Translations under genes and position numbers: made by a program | The notes under the pieces: model-generated | Told to the model about the DNA's origin: nothing | What the model saw: the letters and a program-made list of their open reading frames with translations, nothing else | Database searches by the model: none | NCBI RefSeq assembly: GCF_000497125.1 | Contig: NC_090598.1 | Coordinates: 806,001 to 870,000 of the forward strand | DNA: 64,000 bases | Direction: 5' to 3' | Source of the DNA: Spironucleus salmonicida | Taxonomy: Eukaryota | In this document: piece after piece, positions 13,941-60,313 of the stretch | Position numbering within the stretch: the first letter of the stretch is position 1 | How the letters are laid out: every line of letters begins with the position of its first letter

Positions 13941-13972
13941 ATTTACGGTCCAGGACGTTTAAATGGGAGGGG

Positions 13973-14091: not shown

Positions 14092-14097
14092 GTTCGG

Positions 14098-15030
14098 TCA
14101 CTCGCAGAGAAGGATTTAGATCAAATCGTGCAGCTCGGTCCCCTCGTACTGGGCAAAATCTGCTAGAAATTCGTCGTCGTGCGCGAGGTAGGCCAGGTCC
14201 TGACTATCGCAGTGCTGCAGGACGCTGTACAGATTCCGCAGGTACTAGCCATCGAGAGCCAGGTAGGAGCGTCCGGAATTGCTGAGGAAGCATCCCAGGG
14301 CCTACGGGGCGTAACTGATGCAGTTCGGTAGGTATAGGTGGACGGTTTCCCGCACGATTCTACAGCTCTCAAAATTCATGCATATAGGCACAATGTCGTA
14401 GAAGATGCCGGCCTGCGCGAGCTTCACGACGGACCACACGAGGAAGTAGAACGGCGGGGAGTTGCTCAGGGCGTCGTAGCCCGACTGCGCGCCGTCGAAG
14501 AACTTCGAGCTAACGCCATCCAGGACCCGCTCGACCTGCACCAGGAGCGGTGTCGGGATCGTGAGCCGCTGGCTTGTGCAGTTGCGGATCAGGATGAACG
14601 TGAGGTACTGTGCCTCTGTGAGGTACTCCTCGGTGCGCAAAAATACCTCGAAGACGCCCGGCAGCGATGGCGCAGCGAAGAGGACCCCGCAGTCGTAGTC
14701 GGGGAGCAGGATCATGAGTGAGTCGAACACCATCCGCATGGGCTGCTGCAGAACGATGCTGAGCAGCAGCTCGTTGTAAAACAGCTTCGGGAGCTCGCTC
14801 TTGGAGAAGAACTGGAGGAGCTTGAACGCCCACGGGTAGTCGGCCAGCAGCAGGCTGGTGAGCTGCGCCTGCATGGCCGGGGAGTCGTTGATGATGATAG
14901 TGGCCTGGTCTGGGCTAAGGCTGCTGATCGCACCCACGAGCCCATCTAGGGTGTCAAAGTGCAGGGCGACGGGCTAGATCGGGAAGTGCTGCGCGAAGGT
15001 GTTCAGCTGATGCCTCCTGTAAACTTCCAT
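14098..15030 (-). CDS. Hypothetical helical protein (310 aa), full-length copy
   Basis: Code-6 frame MEVYRRHQLNTF...ILLCE. TATAAT plus CCACACTCC upstream, gAGTGA stop. Confidence 0.75.
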
Positions 15031-17665
15031 TTTGGAGTGTGGCGTATTATAATGTGCCTAAGCAAATATCATGCCAGCTAGGCCGGCTAATAGGGCAGTC
15101 CTTTGCCGTGCATCTTCTGCTCGCGGTAAATGCTCTCGGAGCTGAACCGGTGTTTTTTGCCGTAGTGCTGCCACGGGAAGCATGATGGGCCCGGCACGAA
15201 TCGGCTGAGCACAAAAAAAGCAAGCGTCACTTTCTGCCTCTGCCTCTGCCTCTCCTGGGTGGGATTTTGGTCACCTTGGCCACCTCTACCTTGTCGTTGA
15301 CTGCCACACCTTAGTGCTTAACGACTTTTCTGCTCACCCTTTTCTGCCACTTGGCTGGCATCGGTTTGGCCTCCTTCTTCACAAACACTTTTTCGATGAC
15401 TACAATGGGGGCCTGCTTGACGGCTAGCGCTTTGACGATGGAGCATTCCTGGACATCCGAAAAGTTAACCACGCCGCCAAGGCAGCCGCTTTTGTCTTCC
15501 ATAAATCTGGCGCAGTCCCCCTTGAAGCCAACGCCGTTCAGGAGCCCCACTAGGTAGTTGCCGGCTGATTGTGGCTGCGCCAGCGAAATATCTACGTAGT
15601 TCTTCGACTCTACAAGTTCTCTCCACTCTGTCTCGAAGTACTTCCCGGGATCCTTCTTCTCCCTCTTAACGAGCGAGTTGGACGGGAAATGACTGGATAT
15701 TATGCAGGATGCTGCCTAACACACCTGGGAGAACACACTTCCCTGAATCTTGCACATAGCGGGTGTGTTGGCACTCAGAACTTGAAAAAGCTCGCGAGTC
15801 TAATTAATCTGAAACCTAACCGTGGCATCGCAGTTTTGGGATATGCTCTGCACCAGCTTAAGATTACCCCTGATCAGGGCCTTGATGTTTTGCAACGCAT
15901 CCAGCGATGGCGTGGAAAATTAAATTTGGAATATGATCTCAAATATCTAGTAGAGCTGGTTTAGATGGGCCGACTGGTACGGTTTCGGAAGAACGAACGG
16001 CTGGTTCTCCAAGTATGCTCTGCTGACGTTCATAACAAAATCAATCTGCTCTCTGTCCTTTTCGGTCTCTTCGCCGTCAAAATTGAGAGAGGCCTTCTCA
16101 CAGCACTCGATAGCCTTTTGAAACTTCATGTTGCTAAAATAATACAGGGCCTTATTGTATTAGAACTCATAGTTTTTAAACTGGAGCGGGTTTGTGTTCT
16201 GCACTCCGCTTCTCGTGCAGCATGCCAGCTAGTTGACGCTCTGTTCATAGTTCTTGGTCGACTGCTGCGACTCCGAAGCCAGCTAGAAGTTTTTGAGGCG
16301 GTATGCGATCTACTATTTCAGGACGTCCGCCTTTGGGTGTGCTTCTGTAGACTTGAAGTACCAGTAGGCGTCCTTCTTGAGTGAATAGTCGCAGTATGCG
16401 CGCTCAAAGTCTAGCCCCTATTTCGGGGCGACCTCTAACGCCCGCTGAAGAGACTCTATGTCGTAGTTTTTGATATGGCATGCGCACACGAGTCTGCTCT
16501 TGATAGGTTCAACGAGGGACGCTGCACCGCTGATGACCTTACCGTACTCCTCGGCCTTGAAGAATTGGATGATTTGTTTGGAGATCATTTTATTGGAGTG
16601 GTGTGTAGATTAGCAAAGTATTATATGATTATTGCCTGATAAAGTATATGCTAGAGTCAGCTGCACGATTTCCATCTCGCGGCTTCGCTGCGATCTTTCG
16701 AAATCAGAAAATCACCTCAAACAGACAGTAACTACCCTATTGAATATACTTTATCTTTCTCTTGTCTCCAAGACGCTGTTGGTACTGCTTCCCATCAATT
16801 TACATCAGGCAAGTCTGCCCCTTCGCTATTGGCTTGGTCGGGGACAGCACCCTCACTTTAATGTCAAGGGCTAAGTTAAACAGAATAATGTCGGTGGACA
16901 TGAAGCTCACTTTCTGCAGGGTGATGTACCGTAAGATGACAAAGGAACTCTTGTTGGCAAGCACTGCTATCGCGTCGTACACGGTCTTATTATTCCATTC
17001 GGCTGTTACAACTTGTACGCTGATGTTCTTCTTGCAGGTTAGGAGTTGCTGCACCACAACCTCTTCTTGTGGGGTAATCGGAACCTTCTTGTCGCCAAGG
17101 ATATACAGTATGTGTGTTTTCCCTAAGTGGACCTTTTTCTGAGCCTAATAGCAGGCATACTTCGAATCCTTCACGATACTGAAAATCAGTTAGTTCTTAT
17201 TCATGCTCTGTATATTTCTGATAAGATACTTTTGTTTGAGTACCTTTTCACGTGCTGACAACCACGTTTGGCAAATCTCCAAAGATTTTTGCGGGGGGAT
17301 CTTGTTGTTGAAAATGCAGATCTTGCCTTTCTTAAACTAATCAGCGAAACATTTCTAAATATCTTCCGGGGTGTCGGCCCACATTTTATTCTTCACCATG
17401 TAGCTGAGGCGGTCAGTACTGCAAACTGGAGTTTTCACTACTGAATCGTTTCTATGGCCCAGTAGTTTGTTGCTCACGTTAAAATATCGCGGGAACTCCT
17501 GCTTTAGGCACCATGTGAAGTCCAGATTGTACCAAGAAAGTCCGATTTTTTGCATGTTCCAGGCGTGGTTTTCACCGTTGGAGGCCGGACCCGTCACGCA
17601 GATTGAAGCCTTGTTCAGCAGCTTGGAGAGGAGCTTGAACAGCTTCGCGAAGCCGGCGCAGACGG
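14379..17665 (-). repeat. Inverted duplication 1, native arm (3287 bp; partner 19414..22700)
   Basis: Position p pairs with 37079-p. Mismatches noticed only at 15411/21668 and 15874/21205. Confidence 0.97.
15227..16588 (-). CDS. SRP72: Signal recognition particle subunit SRP72-like TPR protein (453 aa), copy 1
   Basis: FERAYCDY, QIAYRL and YEFQYNKA TPR signatures. C-terminal PMPAKW...HQG resembles the PDPERW...QG RNA-binding segment, followed by a basic RGRGRGRK tail. Confidence 0.75.
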
Positions 17666-18191
17666 CCACCCCGTTAAATGGACCCAGCGGGCTGAACTGG
17701 CTGTGCTTCATATTCGTTTCAGCAATGTTGCCGTATCGTGAATGTTTCGTGATCCAAACTAAATATTTTTAAGCCAACGTGTTACGACTCGAAGTAGTAC
17801 TTTAAATTAACTTAGTTACATTATAAATAAGAGTATTTTATAATTAAATAGTATTAGTATCATAACTAAAATTAAGTTTCGTAATATATGGATTAGCTAT
17901 ATATGAACCAAAATCACACATATATAATTCTGGAATTTCATACGCGATAAACTTGCGAATAAGTTTATAATCGTCAATAGTAATTTTAAGAGATTCAGGT
18001 AACACTATTGATTATTATAACTAGATCATCGCATTAACTGAACGAGTAGCCAATACTTATTATGCTTTTTTAAATTTAACATAATAATAATCATTTGCAA
18101 ATCCATATAATTTGAGCTACTGTTTTGGTCTGGTTTAGTTATTTTTAGAGTCTGAAATTTATTTTACACCACCAACTGTTTTTCCTTTCAT
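16704..18191 (-). CDS. Transglutaminase-like cysteine protease (495 aa), full-length copy
   Basis: Cys-His-Asp triad motifs VCAGFAKLF, HAWN and WYNLDFTW. Continuous code-6 frame from MKGKTVGG. Confidence 0.88.
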
Positions 18192-24598: not shown

Positions 24599-24689
24599 TA
24601 AATTTTCTAACTTAAAAGCTATTTATTCTCATTTTTATTATATAATATTGCATTATACGTAAAAAATTTATTCCTTTCTAAATTTCATC

Positions 24690-25607
24690 ATGTCGCTGAA
24701 CCCGCCCTCTACGGTCAAGCGGGAATTCAACTCCCCCCTAGCCTAATTGGAGCTCAGCACGGTGAACCTGCTCTCCCTCACGCCCTTGTCGTGCTCGAAA
24801 CCTCCCTCTGCCGCAGAGCTCGAATCGGCCCCAAATTTCATCCCAGGGCACCTCATGGCCTACCCGAACGAGACGCTGCAGTCGCTGAAACTACACGAAA
24901 CGACGATTCCACCCTCCTACCCCACGCTGGTGCTGCCGCAGGACCAGTTCCACAAACTCTTCAGATGCGCCACCGCTCTGCGATTATCCACTCACTGCCG
25001 CTTCGCGGTTTTGGACACCTTCCACAAAATTTACTCGAATTTCGACGTGGCGGCCAAATTCGCGCCCGTCGCGTGCTGCGTTGTCTCGATTTGCTCGAAA
25101 TTTGAGCCGAATTTTGGCCAATTTTCCACTCTAAAACGGGTCGTGAATGTGCTTTTCGGCGCGCAGCAACCCGGCCTCTAGAAGCTGATTTCGTGGGAAT
25201 ACGCCGTTCTGGATGCCCTGGAATGGCGTGCGGAGAGCGTAAACGCGTGGACTTTTGCGGAATTCTTCGGCGCGGCCTGCCACTTCGACAGGCTCAGCAT
25301 GGCGTTTTATGAGTATCTGCTGGCGATTTGCTATTTGGATAGTCAGATTTACCACTTTAAACCGCTCAAAATCGCCGCTGCGGGGGCCAGTTTGACGTTA
25401 GAAAAGTTCAAGGGGATAAAATTTACCGTAAACTTGAAGCAGTGGAGTGGAGTTGAATATTAAGATATATGTGCTGAAATATAATATATTAAAGAAAAAT
25501 TTCGATAGGGAAAGGTGGTCCGCGGATTCTTGCACGAGTACTATTCTAGCGCCGAAATGGGCCGCGTCAGCGTCGTCGGGAGCGACGCAAATTGCATTTT
25601 TGAGTGA
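24690..25607 (+). CDS. Cyclin (A/B-type fold, divergent; 305 aa)
   Basis: Cyclin-box features SICSKFE, WEYAVLDALEW, YLLAICYLD...FKPLKIAAA. Ends gAGTGA. Confidence 0.85.
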
Positions 25608-25626
25608 GTTGTAGAATTTAGTCAGC

Positions 25627-27333
25627 TCAGGGGTACGAATTTATGATGTCAATCACGTTCATCACCACGGCCTCTACGCAAATGATCCCGTAGACCACAA
25701 TTAGGCACTTCGCTAAAATGCTGAAATCCTTCATCTCCTTGAATTTGCAATCGAATTCTTGGCGCTGCGCGATCTCGACGCCCTCGTCGATTTCCTGCAC
25801 CGCCTGCTCCAGCATGTTGACCACTTCCGTGGCTCCTGGGGCATTCTCTGGCTAGCTGTCCTGCATATTATCCGCATCGTTGCCCTTCAGATCGTTCCCA
25901 AAGCTTTGGTTCTTGCTACCGCTTCTGACGCGGACGTTATCCCCTTCGACGATAATGCTGACGGCTCTAGAACGGCCCACTGGGACCGTTTCCAGCGCGT
26001 TATACGGGCGCTCGTCAATGCCAAAAATTTTGTTGCTTAGCGCTCTGGCCCGGCCCATGTTCAAGTCTACGCCAGTCATTGCCATAAGGGCTACGGATAC
26101 GCTATCAATGGGCTATTCCGCGTTAGATTCGATGAGATCTCTTGATATATTCTACCTGCGAATAGCTGGTAACTTGATAATGATTGTGAAGGGAATGAAG
26201 AAATAGAAGAAATAACCCGCCAGCGCACCGAACAACCCGAAAATTTACACAATCGATTCTAGCACTAACGCTAATAATAATGTGCAAACAATATAGAAAA
26301 CTGCTACGCCAATCTGGACTAGATACTTCTTCTTTTCATTTAAGTTTGGAAAATAGGATGCAAAGGCTACTTTTAATGGATAAAGCGCTAAAGGATAAGC
26401 GATCATAATCGAAAATGCATAAACGAATGCTAGAACATTCATATAAGTTTAGTTACAGCCTGCGAAAGCTACAAATATATTATCTTTAATGTTAGAATTA
26501 AACATGGCTGATGTCATTAACCCTGTAACTAGATAGAATGTTAGTGACACACAAAGGGCAATAACTTCTGCTATCCAAACAATTTTTTTACGTATAATCG
26601 GAGGACCTTAGAGCTCATTGAGCATGTTTGGTATCAAAGTATGTACAGTAAAATATCCTTAAAGGCCAGGAATATACATGAAAAAATTCAAAATTTATTG
26701 GTAAACAGGTGTAGTAGCGGTTGATGGGAAGAATTCAAGCTTATATTAATTTCCACAAAAAGATTTGCTTTTCAAGAAAACAAAAAAGTATACTATGAAT
26801 GAAAACCCAGATACAAAAATGACTAATCCTGCTACAGATGCTACCTTTGATAACTACTTAAGAGATTTTATGCAAGAAAGTGGAAATATAACGCATACTG
26901 CTATTATTAACTTAACATACATAATGTTGAAATTGACATTAAAACTTTTTAAAAACATGTCTATGTTTTTAGCAGCAACTACAATATAACCAGTCAGATA
27001 ACCTAAAAATGATATATATAATGATGCATCTAATATATAGCCCGCTTTTTTCCCTAATACGGCTTGAGCCAATTCACGATATGTACCAGAAGAAGTATAA
27101 TGAGCTCCTGAAATAAAATAGTACATAAAAATTAGTAAAGACAAAACTGTATAAACGAATATAAAAACACCAAGAACTACACCCAACTTATTGAGTAAAA
27201 ATCCTATTGATAGTAATGATACACCCATCATTGAAGATATTAAGGTAATAGAAGTTGATTACATTTATTTGTCCTTTTTGCGTGTATTAGAATGCATTTA
27301 CTACTACCCATTTTGTTAAGGGTTGTTGTTCAT
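25627..27333 (-). CDS. Amino acid transporter, AAAP/SLC38 family (568 aa)
   Basis: SSMMGVSLLSIGF, FPLSCIKSLK, IMIAYPLALYP, IFGLFGALAG. Four track fragments are in one code-6 frame. Confidence 0.88.
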
Positions 27334-27778
27334 TATCAAATAAACTACAATTTAGATAGTATTCTATATTATATAAGATTTATTCAGATTCACAATATGA
27401 TTTTTTAATAATTAATTTATATAAATAAATAATGTAAATTCTATAATTTACTACTGAAATATTAGTAATTTTATAACAATATTTACAGATTCTCATTTGT
27501 TACTAAATTTTCTTATCTGCTTGAGAATAAATTAATATATAAGACATAAGATATTATGAATTTCTAGGTTAATTTATTCTCTCAGTTAAAAATATAAATA
27601 AAACAATCTTGAACTAAATAAATATTAACATATATAAAACCTATATAAAATAATACTAAAAATAATAGTCTTGTAGATATTAAAGTACGTATAATGAGTA
27701 TTCATAAGACTATTTTATAACACTATTAATTATTGATATAAATTACAAAAAAATACCGACTACTTTTTACAGGAGACG

Positions 27779-28765
27779 ATGTCGGCGTTCTCGGCGGTGC
27801 TGCTGGGCCGCGTGGCGGCGGAGGAGGCTATCGAGATCATCAAGTACGACAAGTCCGCGCAGTTCAAGAAGAACAAGAACAAGGAGGACATCACCTCCGT
27901 GACCGCCGAGTCCGGGCAGCCGCTGATGCTCCCCACCTCGGACCGCCTCATCTGGCCCGGGGACAACCTCGACCCGATGACGGTGCTCGCGATCGGCATC
28001 TCCGCCATCTCCCTGCGCGAGAACCCGGAGTTCCTGCTCCGGTACGCGCAGCGGATTCTCCAGTTCTGCGACATCCACGCCCGCCGCGCGGTGCCCTTCA
28101 TGATCGCGCTCGGCTTCGCGTCGAACCCGGACAAGCTGGCGATCTCGGACCTGGAGAAGCTGGCCCTCAACAGCGACAAGACGCTCTCGGCGAACGCGAT
28201 TCTGGCGCTGGGCATCGTGGGCTGCGGCAGCCAGAACTCCCAGATCTGCGGCGTGCTGCGCCACGCGGTGGAGAGCAAGTTCTACAGCGACGGCGTGATC
28301 GAGCACGTCCTGCTGAACGCCCAGATCGCGTTCGGCCTGCTCTACTGCGGGAGGGGCAGCCTGTGCATCAACCTGAAGAACCCCAAGTCCCTCGCGGCGC
28401 TGCTGAGCCTGCTCAACTTCGCCGCCCCCGCCGCGTCGGTGATGGCGAGGCCCAAGTGCACGATGGTGTACTACCTGCTGGCGTGCTGCCTCGAGCCGAA
28501 GGTCGTGACCTGCGTGGACGCGGACATGAACAGCGTCAAGGTCAGCGCGCGCGTGGGGAGGGAGATCGAGGACTACCAGAGCGAGAAGGGCGCCAGGCTG
28601 GTGGGCTTCTCCCTCCACGAGACGCCGGTCGTGAAGAGCGTCGGCCAGAGCCTGCGGGTCGTCAGCGAGGGCAAGGTCGGGCTGAACGAGGACTGCGGCG
28701 TGGTCGTGGTCGTGGACGGGGAGCAGCAGGGGCAGGACGAGGACGAGGATAACCTCTACAGGTGA
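27779..28765 (+). pseudogene. RPN1: 5'-truncated copy of proteasome Rpn1 (C-terminal 328 aa, in frame from an internal Met)
   Basis: Identical to the 3' third of 34599..37511. Upstream sequence is unrelated AT-rich DNA. Confidence 0.8.
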
Positions 28766-28975
28766 GCTGTTGCGCTGTCACTGCCGTCCGGCCCCCCCTG
28801 GTTTACGCTCCACACCCCATTCCGCTCCACGCCCTTCCGCACTTACTTCGGGGCGCGGCCGCGGGATGTCGGAACTCGCCTGCGGCTGCCGGTGGCCCGC
28901 CGCCGTGCGCTGGTGCCGCCCCTTACTTTTTAGTTACCAAGTATCTTTTTTCGAACCACTCCCAGTATACAAAGA

Positions 28976-29308
28976 ATGGAGTCCCGGCGCATCTCCGGCC
29001 ACCTGTTCATGGGCGTGCAGCAGAAGCTCCCGGAGCCCGACATGGCGGTCGTCAACGCCACCTTCTACACCGCCGCCGACGTGCTGGCCCGCCGCGACCA
29101 GCACTGGGTCAGCTACCGTGGCATGGTGTACGACCTCAGCCTCTACGTCGCCTACCACCCCGGCGGCGACTGCTTCGACTGGGGCTACGACATCACCGCC
29201 GCGACCACCGCCGCCCACGCCTTCGTCCACGCCGAGATGTTCATCAGACGCCTCGCCGTCGGCGTGCTCCAGGGCCCGCCGCAGACCCCGCCGAAGCGGC
29301 CCTTCTGA
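28976..29308 (+). CDS. Soluble cytochrome b5-like heme-binding protein (110 aa), copy A
   Basis: WVSYRGMVYDLSLYVAYHPGG...DIT....AH carries both axial His. CCACTCCC upstream. Confidence 0.88.
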   Translation: MESRRISGHLFMGVQQKLPEPDMAVVNATFYTAADVLARRDQHWVSYRGMVYDLSLYVAYHPGGDCFDWGYDITAATTAAHAFVHAEMFIRRLAVGVLQGPPQTPPKRPF

Positions 29309-29975
29309 GATTTTCCCCCACTCCACGGACGGCGAACCGGTGCATTCCCCGCAGCCTCCACGGGCGAGCTAGTGAACGCCCCCTCACTCCACGCTCCCCC
29401 GCGCCATGGCCTGCTTGCGAAATAGCCTTAAACTCAATAATAAGTTTTGTTTAATATAATATTTAGATCAGAGTATAAAAGTTCTACTAACTTAATAAAA
29501 ATACGAATATCAACAATGTCTTATATATCAAATTCTAATTATCCTTAATAATATAATTCTAACCAATAATAACCACCTAATGGTTATAATCAATAGAGTA
29601 ATGCGAATAACATGTAATAATATTCATAAATACAACCTATTATGGTATGTCCATAAATCCCAAATCATATCCCTCCTCATATTCCTAAATCCAATGTATA
29701 AAATTATTAATAGTAGTAATTACCAAATTAACAATAAAGTCATGGTTTTTTTGGAAGGTTTAAAAATGTGTGATTTATCTTATATAATATATTTATTTCT
29801 AATCCTAATTTTTTTTGATTTTCGGATAAGAATCCAAAATTTCACAAATGTAAAAATCAATATAATCATTTTGATATAACTTCCATTATTAGAGAATGGG
29901 ATATTCTTAATTTTCTTATTAAATCTAAAATACTTCAAAATAATAAAAAATTTAAAATCAATCAGTAAATTTAAA

Positions 29976-31325
<1,350 letters not shown>

Positions 31326-32981
31326 TCTATTTAATTTATTTTTTTAAATCATAAGCAATAAATTAAAGTCTATGCTGTAATGAATATTAATGATAAAAGA
31401 ATTATAAAATTATTTATAAAACTAATATTTTCAACGAGAATGAATGTATTCTAAATAATAGGATTTAGTACTGTATTAAATTTCTTAATAATTATGAATT
31501 ACACTAATGCCACTACAATTGTTACAATAAATTAGGCTAAGTTCATTAATATATTTACCATGATGACAAAGCTAGGAGATTTTTCATAACGTAAAAATCC
31601 AAATAAATACAATATAATATTTCCACTTATTATTGTGGCCCCAAAACCACTAATCTATGAAAATTAATCTATTTATTAATGCTAATGAAGAAGATATATA
31701 TCATTACCTTTATATTTTGACATTGCAGATAAAATTGAGCTTCTAATAACCATTTTTGTTTAAAGCTTAGTAATATAAATTTGATCTATTAATATAGTAC
31801 TAAATATTAATAATTTTATATTTTTTGTAAACGTTTTTGTATACGTTAGTGTTTTAGCTATAATTTATATATGCTAAAATTCATTTGAATGTTTTAATAG
31901 AACTATGATATACTAACATATAAATACAAATTTGAATCAAATAACTTGCTTATATGAAAATATTTTGTCAAAAATAAACATTTATATTAGGTATTTTTAA
32001 TATTATTTACTGTATCCATTAAACTAGTAAAAGAGTATTTTATATTGGTATCACCACTATTTCAATCTCGAGAAAAGCAATTTTAACACCTTAACATAAA
32101 ATTTTTCGTATTTATAAATTATAAAAAGATAATATTGAACACAAACATACAATAGGCATTTTTCATTGAAAAATAGGATTTTTGATTTATGAGGAAGTTC
32201 CATGAAATATAATTGATATCTATGGTAAATTATTTATATTATTACTTTAATTATAAAAAATGAAGTAATAAATTGAGATGAGATATTTTTATGATTTATG
32301 TTAACTGGGAGTAACTATGATATATAGTACTATAATTACTTCAAATATATTCAACTTTTTATATAAATAATCATAGCAGATTTCAAGATATCACAGACTT
32401 TGTTTATTAGTTAAAATGCTAAGAACATATAATTTAATATTATTTTTAATCATTACCTGGGTTTTACAAATCATGAGAATATACATTATACTCTGCCCTA
32501 TCTGGCTTTAACTTTTGAAGTAAACAAAATAGGAATTAAATTAGTTAATTCCTAATTTATTGCAAAAAAACAATGAATTCCAAAAACTTTATCATTTAAA
32601 ACGAGTAATATATTTATTTCCTTATAATTATATTAAACTACTTTTATCTATACTCAAATAACATATAACTTTACTTCGCAGCCTCACCATATCAAGCCAA
32701 CTAACCTAGCATTATTATTTTCACAGAATAATATTTTTATATATTAATATAATTATTTTTTATAAAAACAGAAATACTCATAATTTAATCCAAAAAACTG
32801 CCTAATTTACCACTATATTATTAATTTTAACACACAACCTTTCAACAAACCTTCTGAACTTTTACCTTTCCCAACCTCATATCTACTTCAATAACTCGAA
32901 AATTACGCTTTCCAAAAATAGTTTAATTTTTTTTCAAATTATATATTATCATTATTATACATTAATACCCATAAAATAAAA

Positions 32982-33791: not shown

Positions 33792-33980
33792 ATGAAGAAA
33801 CACAATTCATTCAAAAATCATGCTACGACGACTTTGACGGTGTACATCATCTAACTATAGACTAGCATAGAGGCTTAGATTAACAGAATGATTCGTCTCG
33901 AGGAAAATTGTGGTAGGCTAGACTTGTAGTTAGGTGAAATATTTCGCAAGCAGGCCATGGCGCGGGGGAGCGTGGAGTGA
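33792..33980 (+). CDS. Small hypothetical coiled-coil protein (62 aa)
   Basis: MKKHNSFKNH...ARGSVE ending ggAGTGA. Its 3' end lies inside duplication 2. Confidence 0.5.
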
Positions 33981-35596
33981 GGGGGCGTTCACTAGCTCGC
34001 CCGTGGAGGCTGCGGGGAATGCACCGGTTCGCCGTCCGTGGAGTGGGGGAAAATCTCAGAAGGGCCGCTTCGGCGGGGTCTGCGGCGGGCCCTGGAGCAC
34101 GCCGACGGCGAGGCGTCTGATGAACATCTCGGCGTGGACGAAGGCGTGGGCGGCGGTGGTCGCGGCGGTGATGTCGTAGCCCCAGTCGAAGCAGTCGCCG
34201 CCGGGGTGGTAGGCGACGTAGAGGCTGAGGTCGTACACCATGCCACGGTAGCTGACCCAGTGCTGGTCGCGGCGGGCCAGCACGTCGGCGGCGGTGTAGA
34301 AGGTGGCGTTGACGACCGCCATGTCGGGCTCCGGGAGCTTCTGCTGCACGCCCATGAACAGGTGGCCGGAGATGCGCCGGGACTCCATTCTTTGTATACT
34401 GGGAGTGGTTCGAAAAAAGATACTTGGTAACTAAAAAGTAAGGGGCGGCACCAGCGCACGGCGGCGGGCCACCGGCAGCCGCAGGCGAGTTCCGACATCC
34501 CGCGGCCGCGCCCCGAAGTAAGTGCGGAAGGGCGTGGAGCGGAATGGGGTGTGGAGCGTAAACCAGGGGGGGCCGGACGGCAGTGACAGCGCAACAGCTC
34601 ACCTGTAGAGGTTATCCTCGTCCTCGTCCTGCCCCTGCTGCTCCCCGTCCACGACCACGACCACGCCGCAGTCCTCGTTCAGCCCGACCTTGCCCTCGCT
34701 GACGACCCGCAGGCTCTGGCCGACGCTCTTCACGACCGGCGTCTCGTGGAGGGAGAAGCCCACCAGCCTGGCGCCCTTCTCGCTCTGGTAGTCCTCGATC
34801 TCCCTCCCCACGCGCGCGCTGACCTTGACGCTGTTCATGTCCGCGTCCACGCAGGTCACGACCTTCGGCTCGAGGCAGCACGCCAGCAGGTAGTACACCA
34901 TCGTGCACTTGGGCCTCGCCATCACCGACGCGGCGGGGGCGGCGAAGTTGAGCAGGCTCAGCAGCGCCGCGAGGGACTTGGGGTTCTTCAGGTTGATGCA
35001 CAGGCTGCCCCTCCCGCAGTAGAGCAGGCCGAACGCGATCTGGGCGTTCAGCAGGACGTGCTCGATCACGCCGTCGCTGTAGAACTTGCTCTCCACCGCG
35101 TGGCGCAGCACGCCGCAGATCTGGGAGTTCTGGCTGCCGCAGCCCACGATGCCCAGCGCCAGAATCGCGTTCGCCGAGAGCGTCTTGTCGCTGTTGAGGG
35201 CCAGCTTCTCCAGGTCCGAGATCGCCAGCTTGTCCGGGTTCGACGCGAAGCCGAGCGCGATCATGAAGGGCACCGCGCGGCGGGCGTGGATGTCGCAGAA
35301 CTGGAGAATCCGCTGCGCGTACCGGAGCAGGAACTCCGGGTTCTCGCGCAGGGAGATGGCGGAGATGCCGATCGCGAGCACCGTCATCGGGTCGAGGTTG
35401 TCCCCGGGCCAGATGAGGCGGTCCGAGGTGGGGAGCATCAGCGGCTGCCCGGACTCGGCGGTCACGGAGGTGATGTCCTCCTTGTTCTTGTTCTTCTTGA
35501 ACTGCGCGGACTTGTCGTACTTGATGATCTCGATAGCCTCCTCCGCCGCCACGCGGCCCAGCAGCACCGCCGAGAACGCCGACATCGTCTCCTGTA
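33940..35596 (-). repeat. Inverted duplication 2, native arm
   Basis: Reverse complement of 27768..29424. Both ends fall inside open reading frames here. Confidence 0.97.
34056..34388 (-). CDS. Cytochrome b5-like protein, copy B
   Basis: Identical to 28976..29308. Confidence 0.88.
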   Translation of the reverse strand: MESRRISGHLFMGVQQKLPEPDMAVVNATFYTAADVLARRDQHWVSYRGMVYDLSLYVAYHPGGDCFDWGYDITAATTAAHAFVHAEMFIRRLAVGVLQGPPQTPPKRPF

Positions 35597-37511
35597 GGAT
35601 GCGTGGGTCGTTGGATCCTGAATATGCAAATACCGTAATTAACGATTAGAGATATGCTGCTAGTTGCTTATTATCCTCTACAGCAGTAACTGCCATATGT
35701 TCGTTAGCTTAGTCAGGCTTCTTTACACTCTATAAAACATTTAAAATACTAGCAACAAATTCGTTACACTTAACAGCTTTATCAGCACAATTTGCTGCTT
35801 AGAAAAATATCAATGCAAGACCAATACAGCAGAGAGGGAAGAAACGAAGTAAACGTTGAGAACGTGAGTTTCCAGCGATAAGACGTAAAATTACGTTAGC
35901 GGAGTTAATATCACATGAACCCAAAGATATCATACCTAGTGCTAAGCAAGCAAATGATCTAGGATTTTTCTCCAATGATGGAATTTTCTCTGAAATATCA
36001 CAACTCGACTATCGCAAACGTTTAGCAATAATTTACTTACATTATTCATGGTTTGTGCCAAAATATGCCATTCCCATCCCGAATACTGCCAGTGCCTCCT
36101 TACAATTTGCCCATTCTACAGTAAGATCATTTTTACTGAGTTTGTCATGGTTTCTCGCATTTAATTAACAACCTGAACGATGAACTGTCAATTTAGCTTC
36201 AAGATCGCCAGACTCATCATCAAATGGGGTGAATTACCCAGCTAGTAATTTATAAACATAATCAAAGTGTTATGGGCGTGTTCCCTATGCAGCTATGCCA
36301 ATTCCTAATAAAGACCCTGCTCGGATATACTTATCAGTTGAATTCTAAAGTTTTATAAGCTATTCAAATGAACATTCATAACCTCCCCATAACCAAAGAA
36401 GACCAACTGAAGCAGCAGCCATGGCAGTAGATATATCACTTTTACCTGATTCTAAAGTTCCATTGGTCATTTTCAATAATAAGTTATATCCTTCTGGTAG
36501 TTACTTTTAATCGTTTCCAACGGCATTTTCAACTTTTTCTGTAGCAATTTAGCTTTCATTGACATTTTCCGTTTCCTGTGAAAAATCCATATCAGAATTA
36601 ATAAGAAAATCTGTTTTACAACCAGCATTCATGAATCCATTTTATAGAAAATCAGCAAGATAATGCTAAGACTTACTCCATTCTATTTGAATATCATCTC
36701 TCTTAAGAACATCATTTACAGATTTAGGAAGCGTTAAATTAAGTTATACTAACGAATTATTAAATAGTGGAGATTTATGCGCATTTCTTAATATAGGTAA
36801 ATGTTTTTCTTGAACAATAATTTAATCCTATATAATTTCTTAATATGGTGCTAGCATGAGTGAAATTTATAGCTTCTCAGCATCATTTGCACTATCATAT
36901 ATCATTTGCATCTATTACCAGTTTTAGGATTATATATAAAGTTTTGATGCCTAAATATAAAATTTTCCATTTGTTAAAATATTTGCTAAAAAATTGAATT
37001 TCTCGTATTAATCCTCATAATTTGTGGTTAGTTTAAGACAATTAATTAAATATAACATTACTCTATCCACGTTTTGTGATGTTAAAAATGGAGATATTAA
37101 CGAGTAGTCTACGATAGAAATACAGTCTAGCATATCTATTTCTCTATTTTCCTAATTGAGAAATAACAAAATTTCTGTTAATTTAGTATCCTTGCTTTGT
37201 GCTAATTTGACAGCTGCGATTCTGGCAAGTTCAATAGGTAGAGTTTTAAAGTTAGCTAAATTAGATAACTCAATAATTTAAGCATCTTCAGGTGTAAAAA
37301 TAAGCAATAATTTGAGTAAAAGTTAACCCGTTTATGGATACTTCTTAAGTGTATCAATATGATTTGATAGCTCTTACAAACAAAGCGATGTATTTAGTTT
37401 GGAATCCTCAGTTTATTAGGTTAGAAGATATAACTAGGAGGTTGAGTCTGGTAACCGAGTAATGAGTTCAGATATTGTTTATTAAATTTATGTCTTATCA
37501 GAGGAGGTCAT
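34599..37511 (-). CDS. RPN1: 26S proteasome regulatory subunit Rpn1/PSMD2 (about 970 aa)
   Basis: EIDMLD...NVDRVMLYL, NGFMNAG, PC-repeat segments, RRAVP...LG..SNP, AQIAFGLLYCGRG, VSARVG...GFSLHETPV. The ATG at 37511 is in frame with the track ORF. Not every internal codon was checked. Confidence 0.9.
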
Positions 37512-38220
37512 TTAGAGGTGTGGAAGGGGGTACCAAAAATGTTAATATTATATAAAAGTATGTTAAAAACTTGATTCTATTGGCAATAATTTGGTAGGAT
37601 TTAGTTCTCTAAATACAGTGAATGAAATTGATTCAAGAAAATATAAATACAAGTAATCATGTCCTAATATCTATTAGTTTAGCACACCATGAATATTCCA
37701 AGTTTAAAAAATAACTTGTTGATTTCACATTATATAAAGTAACAAATTATTTTGCCATCTGCTATATAATTTGAATTCTTACCTTGTTGTATATTAAAAT
37801 AGTTACTGAAATAGTTAGCTATTTCATATAGTTAAAATTTGTAATTATGACACTGAATATTCGATAATATTTTAAATCACACCAAAAACAAAATTTTGAG
37901 TTATATTATAGGTTCATCTATTATAAATATAAAATATTATAAATTTCTTAATACTGTTGATTATATTTTATCGAACAATTATTTACTTTATTTTATTATA
38001 TAACAGTAATAACTATAATTATTCATTCGAAAATTGAATTAAATAATTTACGTAACTTCAAATAACGAATTTTTAAGTTTTCATCACTATTATAATACTG
38101 AGTATCATATATTAATAATTATCTTTTAAATATCTAAAGTAAAAGTATGCTTGATTGGAAGTAGTAAGTTATTCATATCTGAATCTTATCAGTATTTAAA
38201 ACAATTATGATGGCCCGGTC

Positions 38221-39530
38221 CCTGCACCCAACCGGTACTTCGTGGTACATCTGGGCCCAACCGGTACTTCGTGGTACACCTGGGCCCAACCGGTACTTCG
38301 TGGTACACCTGGGCCCAACCGGTACTTCGTGGTACACCTGCCCCCCTACCGGTACCTGGGCCCAACCGGTACTTCGTGGTACACCTGGGCCCAACCGGTA
38401 CTCTCCCCCCCGTCGTGGTACACCTGGGCCCAACCGGTACTTCGTGGTACACCTGCGCCCAACCGGTACTTCGTGGTACACCTGGGCCCAACCGGTACGT
38501 CGTGGTACACCTGCGCCCAACCGGTACTTCGTGGTACACCTGGGCCCAACCGGTACGTCGTGGTACACCTGCGCCCAACCGGTACTTCGTGGTACACCTG
38601 GCCCAACCGGTACTTCGTGGTACACCTGGGCCCAACCGGTACTTCGTGGTACACCTGGGCCCAACCGGTACTTCGTGGTACACCTGGGCCCAACCGGTAC
38701 TTCGTGGTACACCTGCGCCCAACCGGTACTTCGTGGTACACCTGGGCCCAACCGGTACTTCGTGGTACATCTGGGCCCAACCGGTACTCGTGGTACACCT
38801 GGCCCAACCGGTACTTCGTGGTACACCTGGGCCCAACCGGTACGTCGTGGTACACCTGGGCCCAACCGGTACGTCGTGGTACACCTGGCCCAACCGGTAC
38901 TTCGTGGTACACCTGGGCCCAACCGGTACTTCGTGGTACACCTGGGCCCAACCGGTACGTCGTGGTACACCTGGGCCCAACCGGTACGTCGTGGTACACC
39001 TGCGCCCAACCGGTACTTCGTGGTACACCTGGGCCCAACCGGTACTTCGTGGTACACCTGGGCCCAACCGGTACGTCGTGGTACACCTGGGCCCAACCGG
39101 TACTTCGTGGTACACCTGGGCCCAACCGGTACGTCGTGGTACACCTGGGCCCAACCGGTACTTCGTGGTACACCTGGGCCCAACCGGTACGTCGTGGTAC
39201 ACCTGGGCCCAACCGGTACTTCGTGGTACACCTGGGCCCAACCGGTACGTCGTGGTACACCTGGGCCCAACCGGTACTTCGTGGTACACCTGGGCCCAAC
39301 CGGTACGTCGTGGTACACCTGGGCCCAACCGGTACTTCGTGGTACATCCTGGGCCCAACCGGTACTTCGTGGTACACCTGGGCCCAACCGGTACGTCGTG
39401 GTACACCTGGGCCCAACCGGTACTTCGTGGTACACCTGGGCCCAACCGGTACGTCGTGGTACACCTGGGCCCAACCGGTACTTCGTGGTGCATCTGGGCC
39501 CAACCGGTACTTCGTGGTACACCGGGGCCC
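38221..39530. repeat. GC-rich 29-bp tandem minisatellite, about 45 units of GGGCCCAACCGGTAC(T/G)TCGTGGTACACCT
   Basis: Directly visible head-to-tail units with no spacers, a few 1-nt indels, and alternating T/G variants. Confidence 0.98.
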
Positions 39531-40969
39531 GCGGCTCGGCCCCTGCGCCAGCCCGGGAGTGAATAAATATTTTACTAAAATCACGATTTCAGTATATATT
39601 AGTTGCTAAAATAAGATTTAATATTATAATAAAGCAAAATAAAATATTAATGCTCAATTATTATAATCATATATAATGAAATTTTGATTTATATTATCAT
39701 TTTAATTGAAGAGTTAATTAAAATGTTTAATTCCTAGTTTTTAATGCCAGTATTAATTTCTCATGGTTATTATTAGAATATTAAGGAATGATAATATAAA
39801 TCATATAATAAAATTTAAATATTTTAATCGCATAATTTTATGCAACCTAATACTTTTCTAAGATTTTTCTTGTTAATCTTTAAAAAATGTATTTACCTCT
39901 CTTATTTTAATAAATATATAATAATAATAATATTGTAAAAGAAATTTATATAGTTTTACAATATAAAACAAATTATTACTATCTGTAACACAAATAAAAA
40001 CTAAATATTTAACTTTTAACTAAAAATCTTGCTCAGTTCTCATAAAAACAAGTTGTTTTTATAGAAGTAATATTGTAATACAGTCCAGTACTTATAAATT
40101 ATGATATATTATTTAATAATTAATTTTTTGATGAAAATGATATCCTACATTAAATTACAATAAAATAAAGTTTCATCTTTAAATCCTAAATTTTCTAATT
40201 CCGATTCATTTCAATAATTAGCATATATAACAATTTTGCTAATAAATAAAATACTTTAAAAAATAACAATAAATTACAACCGTCAAATTTAGCATAATTT
40301 TTGATAAATCCAGGTGTGAAAATTTTGCTTATTTATGTCTGAATATTTAATACATAAGATTATAAATCATTTTGTACCATAAAAAATAAAGATAATGAGT
40401 GTAATTATATGATAAATGTAAAGAAGCATAAATATAAATTAAAGAATCATGATGTATATATTTTTCCAGAGGTTGGGAAAAGTGATTGATCTTCAAATTT
40501 TTCGTTGAAAAAATTATCGAGATTAAGCACAATAATAACAAAGAAATTAGTTTCTTATAATAAATTAATAGTTATTTAATAAATGAGTAATCACAAAATA
40601 GATAACAAAATGATTTTAAAAATATGAATTAGTATTATGAATAAACTATATTTGAAGTCGGTTTTATCTACCCAGAAGGATATTTTTAGAAATTATACTT
40701 TATGATTATGTTATAAATCATCTAATAAGAAAATATTTTTACTTGCTTAACACAACTAACAATGTATTACAGAAACAATAATATCATTAATATGTTTCAA
40801 TATAAAAAATTATGTTGATGTACATAAAAATATACAATACAGGTAATAACAAGAGTAGGGTTTTTTACAGTTACTGTTATAAACCACATTTAGATTTTAA
40901 CACTATTCATTATTATTATATGATATTTATGATATTTATTTCATTGGTTCTTAATAGATTTGTTTTAAA

Positions 40970-42319
40970 ATGCCCGCCAAGACCGTGCAAGATTTAAAGA
41001 ATGTACTTTAATAGAGAGATGCTCACAACATTGAATTCTGCCAAGCTGTAAACGAGGTAATTGACTCCTTAACAGTTGTGTTTGAAGAAAATCCAAAATA
41101 CATATCTGTATTTGAACAATTATTAGAACCAGAACGCGTTATAATGTTTAGAGTACCTTGGACTGATGATAAAGGAGAAGTTAATATTAACAGAGGTTAT
41201 AGAGTTTAATATAACTCTGCTTTGGGCCCCTACAAAGGTGGACTACGTTTCCACCCTTCAGTCAACATCTCTGTGCTCAAGTTCCTGGGTTTCGAACAGA
41301 TTCTCAAAAACTCCCTCACAACCCTTCCAATGGGAGGCGGTAAAGGCGGTAGCGACTTTGATCCTAAGGGTAAATCCAACGGTGAAGTTATGCGTTTCTG
41401 TCAGTCCTTCATGACCGAGCTCAGCAGGCACATTGGTCAGTTCACTGACGTTCCAGCTGGCGACATCGGTGTCGGTGGCAGAGAGATCGGCTACATGTTT
41501 GGTCAGTACAAGAGAATCCAGAACCAGTTTACAGGAATTTTGACCGGAAAGGCATACAGTTGGGGCGGTTCGCTTATCAGACCAGAAGCTACTGGTTACG
41601 GGGCAGTGTATTACCTTAACGAGATGATGCTCGACAACGGAGACGATATCAAAGGCAAGAGAGTTCTCCTCTCCGGATCTGGCAATGTTGCGCAGTTCGC
41701 ATCAGAGAAGCTCCTCCATTACGGTGCTATCCCGCTTTCTCTCTCCGACTCTAACGGTACCATTATCGAACCTAACGGCTTTACTGCGGAGCAGCTCAAG
41801 ATGGTTATGGACCTCAAGAACATTAAGAGAGGCAGACTCTCCGAGTACACCTCCATGTCCTCCACCGCCAAGTACTATGAAGGCCAGCGCCCATGGGCCG
41901 TATACGAAGGGAAAGTGGACGTCATCATGCCTTGCGCTACCCAGAACGAGGTCAACGGCACCGAAGCCGAGAGAGTCATCAAGCTTGGGCTCAGGTATGT
42001 TTCCGAAGGCGCCAACATGCCATCCAATGACGACGCTATCCACGCATACCACTCCAGCAAGGTTTTCTACGGCCCTGCTAAGGCATCAAACGCCGGCGGT
42101 GTCGCTACATCAGGTCTCGAGATGACTCAAAACTCCAACAGGCTTCAGTGGTCGGCCGAGAAGGTTGATGCTGAGTTACACGCCATTATGAAGAAGATCT
42201 TTTAACAGTGCAAGCAGACCGCGGAAAAGTACAACAAAAAGGGCAACTACCAGTTTGGTGCCAACGTTGCTGGATTCCTTAAGGTTGCAGATAGCATGAT
42301 TGATTAAGGATGCGTCTGA
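40970..42319 (+). CDS. gdh: NADP-specific glutamate dehydrogenase, copy 2 (449 aa)
   Basis: Near-identical direct repeat of 29976..31325, offset 10994 bp, with canonical RPEATG. Confidence 0.97.
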
Positions 42320-42587
42320 TTTGTTAAAATTAATATGAATTCTTTCCAGATATGTATATATTATGAATATAACTTATACAAATATCATTTGTGCACAGCA
42401 TTAATTAATAAAGAAATATAATTTTAGAGTTACATTTTCTGTTCCTCAATTTTATCATATAATCTGAATATTATTCTAGGTAATTTTTTATATAGAAAAC
42501 CTTTATCAAATAAAATAATTATTGATACCCTATAATCAGATACATATAAACAAAATTTAATAGATATATATGAATTTCACTGCCCCA

Positions 42588-47927: not shown

Positions 47928-48042
47928 GCTAAATACGTTATCTTGAGTTTAAAAGTTTACTTATGATTTAAAAATAACATATTTAATACTATATATTATA
48001 TAATATATAGTAAAGTGAATTTTTAAAAATCAGTTATACAAA

Positions 48043-48360
48043 ATGCGAGGTATGCATCAGTCATTTAAACTGTACATGAAGAATGAGCAGCCTGTGATGC
48101 CGCCTCCAGAAATCATAAACACTCTGATTGGCGACGAAGAGATTTCGAAACACAGAGATAGCTAGTCTTTTTACGTCGTTTACAACCAGTTCGTATATGA
48201 CATCGCGAAATATGTAAAATATCACCCTGGTGGTGCCAAGTGCTTTGCAACCAGGGATTATGACATAACTTCTGCGGTCAAGAAGGCGCACGCGTGGATT
48301 TAGGTGGAGAAGTATATTTTGCACTGCATAAGAGGCAAATACGCTAAGAGTGACTAATGA
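48043..48360 (+). CDS. Soluble cytochrome b5-like protein, divergent paralog (105 aa)
   Basis: Code-6 translation ...FYVVYNQFVYDIAKYVKYHPGG...DITSAVKKAHAW. Missed by the ORF track. Confidence 0.88.
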
Positions 48361-48374
48361 GATATTTTCACGAT

Positions 48375-55404: not shown

Positions 55405-55519
55405 GGCCGCCCAAGAACTCGGCGCAGTTTCGGCTCGATAAAGAGAAGCGGGGTCTCCGCACTCCCGAGTACAATAGCACCGCCCGCCGCACCAACTCTC
55501 TTTATCCCCCTCCACACAA

Positions 55520-56345: not shown

Positions 56346-56447
56346 GGGTGTACAAAGTATACAGCGCTTTACGTTTTGTATACTTTGGGTAAACGGGATT
56401 GGGCCGCGATCCCGATTCGCGGGTCATAAATCTGCGCCCACTCCACA

Positions 56448-56771: not shown

Positions 56772-56835
56772 TATCTTGTCATTTTCTTTGTTTCCCTCTA
56801 GGGCCGCATGCGCGTCGGTGGTCCACTCACCCCTG

Positions 56836-57153
<318 letters not shown>

Positions 57154-58483: not shown

Positions 58484-58693
58484 TCACTCGCAGCAGGCCC
58501 GCAGCAGCTTGAGCAGCTCGCCCTCCTGGGCCGGCGCGGCGTCCTTGCGCATGCGGTAGTGCTTGTTCTTGATCACGGCGACCGAGAGCCGCGGGAAGCT
58601 CTCGCACCGGATGCGCTCCCACTGGCTCCCGTGGCGCTGCACGACCTGGTGGAGGCGCTCCTCCTGCTCGTAGGTCCATCGGTAGGCTGGCAT
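58484..58693 (-). CDS. Single-repeat Myb/SANT protein (69 aa)
   Basis: MPAYRWTYEQEERLHQVVQRHGSQWERIRCESFPRLSVAVIKNKHY. CCACTCCACA leader, gAGTGA stop. Paralog of 18851..19108. Confidence 0.88.
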   Translation of the reverse strand: MPAYRWTYEQEERLHQVVQRHGSQWERIRCESFPRLSVAVIKNKHYRMRKDAAPAQEGELLKLLRACCE

Positions 58694-60056
58694 TGTGGAG
58701 TGGCGAGTACATTGGCGACAGGGACGCGGGCGGGTCCGACGCCGCGTGCCGTAGAAAGCAGGCGTGGGCCCGAGAATACCCCGCGATAGGGCAGTTTTTT
58801 CTGCGAGTACGAGGAGCGGTGAGGAAAGGAAAGTGTCACTCGTGGTGGGCATGGCCGTGGTCGTGCCCATGATCGTGCCCGCCGGTGACCACCTCGATCA
58901 CGTTGCTCACGCTGACGAGGCCGAAGCCCAGCAGCGTCCACAGCGCCCCGCCGGCGACCTCGCGCGCGGTGCCGGTGATCTCGTGGCCGAGGATCTCGAC
59001 CAGCACGATCGCCAGGAAGGTGCCCGCCGCGAAGCTCATGAAGCAGTCCTTGGTCACGTTGAAGGCCACGCCCGCCTCGCTCACGTGCGCGAGCCGCATG
59101 ACCGCGAAGGTCACCAGCTGGGCCACCGGCGTCGCGAAGGCGATGGGCAGGGCGAAGGCGAGGTTCTGGCGCCGGCTGAGCCCCTTGCGCATGCCCGCGA
59201 TCACCTGGCACGACACGTCGCACCACTTGTGCATCAGGATGGCGAGCGCCAGGAACGCGCCCTCGTGCAGGTCGGTCTGGAAGCCGAGGATCACGCCCTC
59301 GGACACGTCGTGGATCATGAGGCTGAGCATGAGCGCCTTGATGGTGGAGTCGGGCCTCACTGCGGGTGGCGCGGTGGCCTGGCAGGTCTCGGTGCAGTTG
59401 TCCGCGTCGTGGTCGTGGCAGTGGTTGTTGCGGTCCACCACGCAGGAGGGGCCGCAGTGGCCGAAGGTCATGGACGCGTGGGCCTCGCAGTCCAGCGGCG
59501 CGCTGCCGGTGTCCGAGGCCGAGGCGTTGTCGGGGTGGCCGTGGTCATGGTCGTGCCCGTGGTTGTGGCCCACCTGGATCACCACCAGCATCGCGAGGAT
59601 GCCCAGGAAGAGCACCACCGAGCTCACCGGGAAGTCCCCGCAGGCGTGGTTCAGCGCGTCCCCGGACTCGGGGATGATGTGCAGCAGCGCCACGCCCGCC
59701 AGCATGCCGCCCGAGAGGCAGTTCATCCGGCCCGTCACCCGCGTGCTCTTCGCGAGCCGCTGCACCAGGTAGGGCAGCACGCCGCCCAGCAGGGCCACCA
59801 CGAGGATCAGCAGGGCCGAGAGCGGTTGGAAGATTTCGATCGCGAGGGCGCTTGACATTGGGGGAGTGGTGCGGCGGAAAGAAAGCCGAATTTTGGGGGA
59901 ACATCTCGCGTACCGTATAATATCCTAATTCCCCGCGCCGCTCCACGCCGCCCAGTATCATTCCCCACGCCGGCCGCACTCCCGCCCGGCCCCCGCCAGG
60001 AGGCGCTGCACCCGCCCGCACAGCCGCGCGTCACTGCACAGGTCGTGGGCCAGAGG
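58608..60056 (-). repeat. Inverted duplication 3, left arm (the partner runs off the window end, so the left limit is a minimum)
   Basis: Position p pairs with 122608-p. Mismatches at 59977/62631, 59894/62714 and 58644/63964. Confidence 0.97.
58836..59858 (-). CDS. ZIP (SLC39) zinc/iron transporter, copy 1 (340 aa)
   Basis: GGMLAGVALLHIIPES, His-rich loop, HDVSEG and AILMHK metal-site motifs, AAGTFL. Confidence 0.93.
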   Translation of the reverse strand: MSSALAIEIFQPLSALLILVVALLGGVLPYLVQRLAKSTRVTGRMNCLSGGMLAGVALLHIIPESGDALNHACGDFPVSSVVLFLGILAMLVVIQVGHNHGHDHDHGHPDNASASDTGSAPLDCEAHASMTFGHCGPSCVVDRNNHCHDHDADNCTETCQATAPPAVRPDSTIKALMLSLMIHDVSEGVILGFQTDLHEGAFLALAILMHKWCDVSCQVIAGMRKGLSRRQNLAFALPIAFATPVAQLVTFAVMRLAHVSEAGVAFNVTKDCFMSFAAGTFLAIVLVEILGHEITGTAREVAGGALWTLLGFGLVSVSNVIEVVTGGHDHGHDHGHAHHE

Positions 60057-60313
60057 TGTACACGTTCTGACAAACTTTAGAAAATACTAAAATTTTAAAA
60101 CATAGATTATATGTATTTATGTATATGAAGATTCGAATGGGTAGATATTTCTGAAAAGATACAAAATCAGAAAGTAAACTGATGGATGAGATGAAAGGAA
60201 AATAATGTTTTGAAATTAAAATTATCTATTACCATCTTTATATCAAATATAATACAATATAAACCACAAATAGTAACTATAACAATATTATATAATATTT
60301 ATATTTATAAAAA

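Follow-up and report, generated by a model that had tools for sequence, protein, structure and literature searches.

A 64,000-nucleotide stretch of Spironucleus salmonicida DNA (contig NC_090598.1, positions 806,001 to 870,000; hereafter the window, within which all coordinates are given) contains a gene for Rpn1, a regulatory subunit of the 26S proteasome, in which the content of guanine plus cytosine (GC) changes abruptly inside a single reading frame, at the point where a perfectly duplicated segment begins. This GC step at the edge of the repeat is confirmed as real and is sharper than first described. GC-biased gene conversion between the two arms of the repeat, limited by the extent of their homology, is the best explanation and, in our judgement, a reasonably probable one.

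The Rpn1 gene (34599..37511, minus strand) is an open reading frame (ORF) of 970 codons in which TAA and TAG encode glutamine. Its translation matches the Pfam families RPN1_RPN2_N (PF17781, E = 3e-10) and PC_rep (PF01851, E = 7.6e-9), both above cut-offs, and 241 homologs were recovered with E <= 1e-10. The protein is colinear with its homologs over the whole length, including across codon 639, through which homolog P0003 aligns. The gene falls into a single-copy, AT-rich 5' part (35597..37511, codons 1-638) and a duplicated, GC-rich 3' part (34599..35596, codons 639-970 plus the stop codon), both on the minus strand. Third positions are G or C in 150 of 638 codons of the former versus 327 of 332 codons of the latter, i.e. 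GC at third codon positions (GC3) rises from 0.235 to 0.985; at four-fold degenerate sites the corresponding counts are 46 of 244 and 169 of 171. Codon choice shifts in the same manner. Glutamine is encoded by TAR, CAA and CAG 40, 7 and 1 times in codons 1-638 versus 0, 0 and 13 times in codons 639-970 (Fisher p = 1e-8), all 40 TAA/TAG codons lying in the single-copy part and every one of the 13 glutamines of the arm part being CAG. For leucine, the counts of TTR, CTW and CTS are 42, 36 and 8 versus 0, 1 and 39. The per-codon maximum-likelihood change point in GC3 falls at codon 639 (base 35594; log-likelihood ratio, LLR, 302; 2-log-likelihood support interval 35591-35617), and the arm of the repeat ends at 35596. 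A preliminary description of this DNA, which had reported an AT-rich 5' part with TAA/TAG glutamine codons and a GC-rich 3' part lacking them, with the change within about 25 nt of the arm end, is borne out on both points.

The duplicated segment is one arm of an inverted repeat, here termed I2 (27768-29424 / 33940-35596), with arms of 1657 nt that show 0 mismatches. The copies lie 4.5 kb apart in inverted orientation, and each comprises the last 332 Rpn1 codons and a complete cytochrome b5 gene, separated by a short spacer. Both the right arm (33940..35596) and the left arm (27768..29424) have a GC content of 0.664, with GC change points at 33944 and 35610-35620 for the former and at 27769 and 29419 for the latter, where flanking GC is 0.18-0.23. 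Beyond the arms, identity to the mirrored flank is 17-30%. The cytochrome b5-like gene (34056..34388, minus strand; second copy 28976-29308, plus strand) lies wholly within the arm, matches Pfam Cyt-b5 with E = 4.5e-8 and has a GC content by codon position of 0.66/0.45/0.98. The non-coding stretch that separates the stop codon of Rpn1 from the beginning of the cytochrome b5 gene (34389..34598), also in the arm, has a GC content of 0.63 and is without three-base periodicity.

The left arm carries a truncated copy of the Rpn1 3' part (27779..28765, plus strand; coordinates obtained by mirroring the arm) that starts 11 nt inside the arm at a methionine matching residue 643. This copy is an intact ORF of 328 codons with AT-rich DNA upstream, and corresponds to database protein P0004 (328 amino acids), which is 100% identical to Rpn1 residues 643-970; judging from its reading frame, it could be expressed as a free C-terminal fragment of Rpn1. 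A further database protein, P0002 (782 amino acids), crosses codon 639 and matches Rpn1 throughout residues 1-774, with identity at 774 of 776 aligned positions. The junction within Rpn1 is not an assembly join, because this separate record spans it.

Lateral transfer of the GC-rich part was considered and ruled out. Both parts of Rpn1 resemble homologs to much the same degree (0.41 and 0.38 for the two parts against P0005), and what the arm duplicates is the 3' end of Rpn1 itself. With regard to faster protein evolution in the arm part, the ratio of arm-part to single-copy-part identity ranges from 0.77 to 1.14 for pairs that include Rpn1 and from 0.86 to 1.13 among homologs, the two ranges overlapping.

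The change in composition is not confined to silent sites. From the single-copy to the arm part of Rpn1, the residues G, A, R and P (GARP) rise from 0.17 to 0.25 and the residues F, Y, M, I, N and K (FYMINK) fall from 0.30 to 0.23. Among sites at which Rpn1 and homolog P0005 have a GARP residue in one and a FYMINK residue in the other, the ratio of GARP in Rpn1 to FYMINK in Rpn1 is 7:27 in the single-copy part versus 10:5 in the arm part (p = 0.003), and the same contrast against three other homologs gave p = 0.03, 0.03 and 0.21. At such differences Rpn1 mostly has FYMINK residues in its single-copy part, and the two directions are balanced in its arm part. Furthermore, non-coding DNA within arms has a GC content of 0.58-0.73 and no three-base periodicity, versus 0.28 just outside the inner end of the I2 arm, and extreme third-position GC was found in 35 of 84 arm windows versus 21 of 342 elsewhere (odds ratio 10.9). 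The GC enrichment appears to be regional and not codon-specific, as non-coding DNA and amino acids shift too. Taken with the position of the step inside one ORF, these shifts rule out translational selection as the main cause, in agreement with the preliminary description.

Three inverted repeats were found in the window. In addition to I2, these are I1 (14379-17679 / 19400-22700), with arms of 3301 nt and 6 mismatches, 4 of them at 17666-17672, and I3 (58608-60059 / 62549-64000), with arms of 1452 nt and 4 mismatches, which is cut by the window end. The left arm of I1 (14379..17679) has a GC content of 0.50 and cuts both a transglutaminase-like gene (16704-18371) and a gene at 14098-15030. 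The left arm of I3 (58608..60059) has a GC content of 0.68 and holds a ZIP transporter gene with a GC3 of 0.97; GC change points stand beside the ends of the I3 arms at 60064 and 62534. Mirrored flanks past every arm end are 17-33% identical, which is the random level, and homology therefore stops abruptly. Strict identity of the arms, stated earlier for the repeats in general, holds for I2 only, the 100% given by the repeat finder for I1 and I3 being the result of rounding.

Arm ends and GC change points were compared across the window by taking the best GC change point within 25 nt and requiring an LLR of at least 20. Such a change point accompanies 8 of 10 arm ends, at offsets of 1 to 24 nt, and 2.15% of 9057 control positions. 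Half of the ends, those on the copy side, are uninformative in this comparison, as inserting a GC-rich copy into AT-rich surroundings necessarily creates GC edges. Information comes from source-locus ends that fall within a continuous gene, namely in Rpn1, in the transglutaminase-like gene and in the gene at 14098-15030. The last of these is GC-rich on either side of the arm end at 14379, with a fall in GC3 at 14394 (0.89 to 0.71; support 14385-14424; Fisher p = 0.002). Three further switches named in the preliminary description hold in part. The weaker one in the transglutaminase-like gene, placed near 17750, is present as a GC3 step at 17756, which lies 77 nt outside the arm end at 17679. 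The one at the end of a DPE2-like gene (CBM20 and GH77 domains), placed near 62535, is seen as a GC step at 62534 next to the arm end at 62549, and makes a weaker case, with only the last 34 codons inside the I3 arm. The GC step at 33940-33944, attributed to an ORF at 33792, is real, and the ORF itself is just 62 amino acids long and without supporting evidence. The tail of the DPE2-like gene within the arm (62549-62650) reads like run-on, non-conserved sequence before the stop, and the I3 arm may have replaced the original 3' end of this gene.

A step that coincides, within a codon, with the place where homology stops suggests a process dependent on a second copy. Under GC-biased gene conversion, the two I2 copies would repeatedly repair each other through arm-to-arm exchange, which would keep them identical. 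If mismatch correction prefers G/C, AT-to-GC changes would spread to both copies and GC-to-AT changes would be removed. As conversion would be possible only within homology, enrichment would end where the arm does, partway through the Rpn1 reading frame. All freely changeable sites in the arm would be pushed to G/C, including the first positions of glutamine (TAR to CAG) and leucine (TTR to CTS) codons, and amino-acid use would be shifted too. The earlier proposal of GC-biased conversion between arms is thus supported by the step at the end of homology, the apparently regional nature of the enrichment and the drop at 14394. We infer, beyond these observations, that conversion is ongoing and GC-biased and that the 3' part of Rpn1 was AT-rich before the duplication, the AT-to-GC direction claimed earlier belonging to this inferred part. 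Had codons 639-970 started with the same GC3 as the single-copy part, some 249 third-position changes would have become fixed in both arms without loss of their identity, and on that assumption of an AT-rich start the age of the I2 pair would greatly exceed what zero divergence suggests. A derived GC-rich state receives indirect support from the AT-rich remainder of Rpn1 and from orthologs in S. barkhanus without high GC at synonymous third positions (GC3s), described below.

Several observations weigh against arm-limited conversion. The AT-to-GC direction of change in Rpn1 is presumed, the outgroups compared being protein homologs, of which the closest full-length ones are 26-39% identical. 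G/C makes up about 98-99% of silent sites in the arms but only about 0.63-0.66 of their non-coding DNA; a purely neutral bias would be expected to give similar values for both, which leaves either constraint on the short intergenic DNA or an additional influence on codons. A two-copy model with a conversion bias of 0.70, using AT-biased mutation inferred from the single-copy part of Rpn1, gives an equilibrium GC of only 0.35, and a value of 0.985 needs a bias of about 0.997 or many exchanging copies. Very frequent exchange between arms, possibly in a polyploid cell with two nuclei, may supply the bias needed. The arms are also unevenly GC-rich, I1 having a GC content of 0.50 and GC3 from 0.35 to 1.0, and GC-richness continues past arm ends, by 22 nt in Rpn1, about 75 nt in the transglutaminase-like gene and 281 nt in the gene at 14098. 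By analogy with the primate palindromes discussed below, and assuming that arm borders move over time, such overruns might mark former arm sequence. Furthermore, a near-identical pair of GDH genes has an AT-rich 5' end. The GDH gene at 40964..42332 (plus strand; Pfam ELFV_dehydrog; GC 0.48) is a direct duplicate of 29970-31338, the copies lying 11 kb apart in direct orientation with 98.2% identity (25 mismatches in 1369 nt). The preliminary description had named identical AT-rich 5' ends of the GDH genes as an exception; the AT-rich 5' end stands, and the pair is a whole-gene direct duplicate with mismatches. Its homology is limited to the whole coding sequence (CDS) and ends at the CDS ends, with unalignable flanks, and the pair resembles an old duplicate homogenised over its coding part only, or a copy of mRNA size. 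Finally, a count of 127 GC-rich 200-nt windows gave 55 that are duplicated within the 64-kb window and 72 that lack a partner there; the unpaired islands lie at 3644-6038, 10609-12093, 12939-14378, 24684-26241, 46807-50013, 54403-56836 and 60689-62345. Sharp GC3 steps occur in unpaired genes, namely those for an amino-acid transporter (26241), DPE2 (60689), a cyclin (24684) and Rpt1 (47361), and a GC3 of 0.96 is reached without a second copy in the window by a TMEM208/SND2-like gene (10597-11157, minus strand) and a superoxide reductase gene of the desulfoferrodoxin type (56448-56771, plus strand).

These unpaired islands favour the most probable of the alternatives, in which the order of events is reversed. 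GC islands of 1-3 kb would be made in place by some other local process, e.g. allelic GC-biased conversion or GC-biased repair at recurrent breaks, often over the 3' ends of convergent genes, and break-prone islands would then be copied as inverted duplicates, the duplicates being a consequence of the islands. Several islands do span the 3' ends of convergent gene pairs, with GC3 steps inside the genes: 24684-26241 (cyclin / amino-acid transporter), 46807-50013 (Rpt1 / TPR protein) and 12939-15585 (SLC35F-like gene / gene at 14098). The last of these reaches 1.4 kb past the I1 arm, which also suits islands that precede duplication. We nevertheless regard this order of events as unlikely. It leaves unexplained why breakpoints fall within a codon (Rpn1) or a few nucleotides (33940, 27768, 29424) of island edges, and why GC3 drops at an arm end inside the already GC-rich gene at 14098-15030. 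Moreover, the unpaired islands may have partners outside the 64-kb window, given that 19.2% of the S. salmonicida genome lies in duplicates of at least 2 kb, a cut-off that excludes duplicates of I2 size (PMC9509377). Unpaired islands may equally reflect a separate island-forming process that seeds duplications. A search for a truncated copy of the C-terminus of the amino-acid transporter returned 143 candidate proteins, none of them significant, a result that says nothing on whether the gene is single-copy.

Less probable still is a recent copying of a block that was already GC-rich, in which the arms would be identical through youth, and the GC-richness would be older, of unrelated cause and maintained without ongoing conversion. 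The 0 to 6 mismatches per arm pair suit a young duplication equally well, and GC steps at copy-side edges follow by construction. However, both ends of the block would have to match pre-existing GC edges by chance (35596 versus 35594 in Rpn1), the origin of the GC-rich block itself would be left unexplained, and four separate near-identical duplicates in 64 kb would all need to be very young. The exact confinement of the GDH homology to the CDS also suggests an old duplicate kept similar rather than a young segmental copy.

It is considered highly improbable that selection, acting through translation, mRNA stability or DNA structure, has favoured G/C-ending codons or regional GC in these segments. 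The gap between silent sites at 98-99% G/C and non-coding DNA of the same arms that stays near 0.64 is consistent with it, and Andersson et al. 2007 interpreted the low effective number of codons in high-GC3 genes as pointing to selection (PMC1805757). Against it, codon use switches abruptly at codon 639 within one mRNA, the truncated and probably non-essential Rpn1 copy has the same pattern, and non-coding DNA and amino-acid make-up shift as well; in addition, the codons favoured by S. salmonicida genes with high expression form a mix of GC-rich and GC-poor ones (PMC1805757). An artefact of assembly or polishing, whether through chimeric joining or through arms being rendered identical during consensus polishing, is scarcely credible: polishing with multiply mapped reads can yield perfect repeat identity, but it cannot create GC-richness, record P0002 and the colinearity of Rpn1 with its homologs carry through the junction, and the published assembly was checked by optical maps and long-read pile-ups (PMC9509377), which applies if the window comes from that assembly.

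GC-biased conversion with comparable consequences is known from other systems. In primate X/Y palindromes, arm-to-arm gene conversion is GC-biased (bias about 0.70), arms have 46.3% GC versus 41.2% in flanks, and arm borders shift with time, so that spacers and flanks retain GC-enriched sequence that once belonged to an arm (Jackson et al. 2021, PMC8981503). The arrangement described here is similar in having inverted, near-identical arms around a unique spacer and arms that are GC-richer than their flanks. It differs in magnitude (66-68% versus 18-30% GC, with four-fold sites at 99% versus 19%), in arm length (1.5-3.3 kb versus tens to hundreds of kb) and in that the arms cut through ordinary housekeeping genes. 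Substitutions polarised with an outgroup belong to the primate case, and the Spironucleus case is known from the composition of arm versus single-copy DNA. A second parallel is the mouse gene Fxy, which spans the pseudoautosomal boundary and of which only the 3' part, inside the pseudoautosomal region, gained AT-to-GC changes, including amino-acid replacements (PMC2631073). In both cases one gene lies under two recombination regimes and composition steps inside one transcript, but the driver differs, being allelic meiotic recombination in Fxy and, as inferred here, ectopic conversion between two copies on the same chromosome. A third comparison is with families under concerted evolution, in which conversion-maintained paralogs are likewise GC-rich at silent sites; these are whole genes or arrays, in contrast to the fragment of an essential single-copy gene and its truncated copy seen here, where the boundary is visible in one ORF. 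Hsp70 is one GC-enriched multigene family of this kind. Others are histones, rDNA and human segmental duplications (cited within PMC8981503).

The mechanism is thus of a known kind. For S. salmonicida itself, the published record already includes the GC mosaic and genes whose GC3 is near 1 (2007, 2010), as well as the raised GC of its duplicated regions (2022). The genome is described as AT-rich, with TAA/TAG encoding glutamine and a minority of genes with GC3s near 1 in GC-rich regions, a pattern called hard to explain in 2007 and 2010 (PMC1805757, PMC2874811), and its duplicated regions have 44.7% GC versus 30.7% elsewhere (PMC9509377, 2022). For the 14 S. salmonicida genes whose GC3s is >75%, no S. 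barkhanus ortholog reaches that value (0 of 14; PMC2874811). In the available text of the S. salmonicida papers (PMC1805757, PMC2874811, PMC9509377), no link of island edges to repeat ends and no proposal of GC-biased conversion was found. The term "gene conversion" has 0 occurrences in the available text of the 2007, 2010 and 2014 papers and 1 in that of the 2022 paper, where it concerns surface-protein families. A literature search found, among the papers it listed, no report of GC-biased conversion in Spironucleus or Giardia duplicates; the one Giardia paper examined invokes GC-biased gene conversion for rDNA only.

The window as a whole has a GC content of 42.7%, with a mosaic structure whose blocks range between about 16% and 70% GC, and its genes are open in frame only if TAA and TAG encode glutamine. 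Its AT-rich DNA, this glutamine assignment, numerous duplications and a minority of genes, located in GC-rich regions, whose GC3s is near 1 match the published S. salmonicida. Gene frames were chosen by third-position GC together with Pfam matches. An initial gene list built from the longest ORFs took wrong frames in GC-rich DNA and was superseded. Longest-ORF gene calling is unreliable in the GC-rich arm blocks: long false ORFs run antisense to the arms at 33892-35859 (plus strand), 27493-29433 (minus strand) and 58551-59855 (plus strand), because TGA, the sole stop codon, is rare there. At 38207-39562 an open frame contains a 29-nt unit repeated about 45 times in a GC-rich (0.64) array, which changes frame between copies because 29 is not a multiple of 3. 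Two tandem repeats lie at GC island edges, one at 56792-57088 with 8-13-nt units, of which one frame gives NQSI repeats, and one at 13973-14091 with CT-type units giving SLSL repeats.

The boundary in Rpn1 amounts to a natural experiment: along a single transcript of an essential gene, G/C at silent sites climbs from 19% to 99%, and the point of change is placed to about one codon. The boundary lies inside one transcript, and therefore expression level, gene function and chromosomal neighbourhood are constant across it; only pairing with a second copy differs. The finding offers a concrete and testable cause for the GC mosaic of S. salmonicida. The broader claim of the preliminary description, that the mosaic is a map of ectopic conversion, is unsupported in the window, where fewer than half of the GC-rich windows are duplicated and unpaired genes carry GC3 steps. 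That nearly the whole mosaic, including the genes with GC3 near 1, was written by homology-limited, GC-biased ectopic conversion, with a silent-site bias above any measured, is a tentative proposition that we would lean against. If it were true, GC islands would form a readable record of present and past duplications, with partnerless islands as "ghost arms", and essential single-copy genes would routinely have stretches of their sequence recoded in this way, with an accompanying shift in amino-acid composition. Such tracts distort analyses of codon usage, dN/dS and gene age, and break gene finders. If confirmed, GC-biased conversion between the Rpn1 arms would mean that conversion bias is able to override strong AT mutation pressure almost completely.

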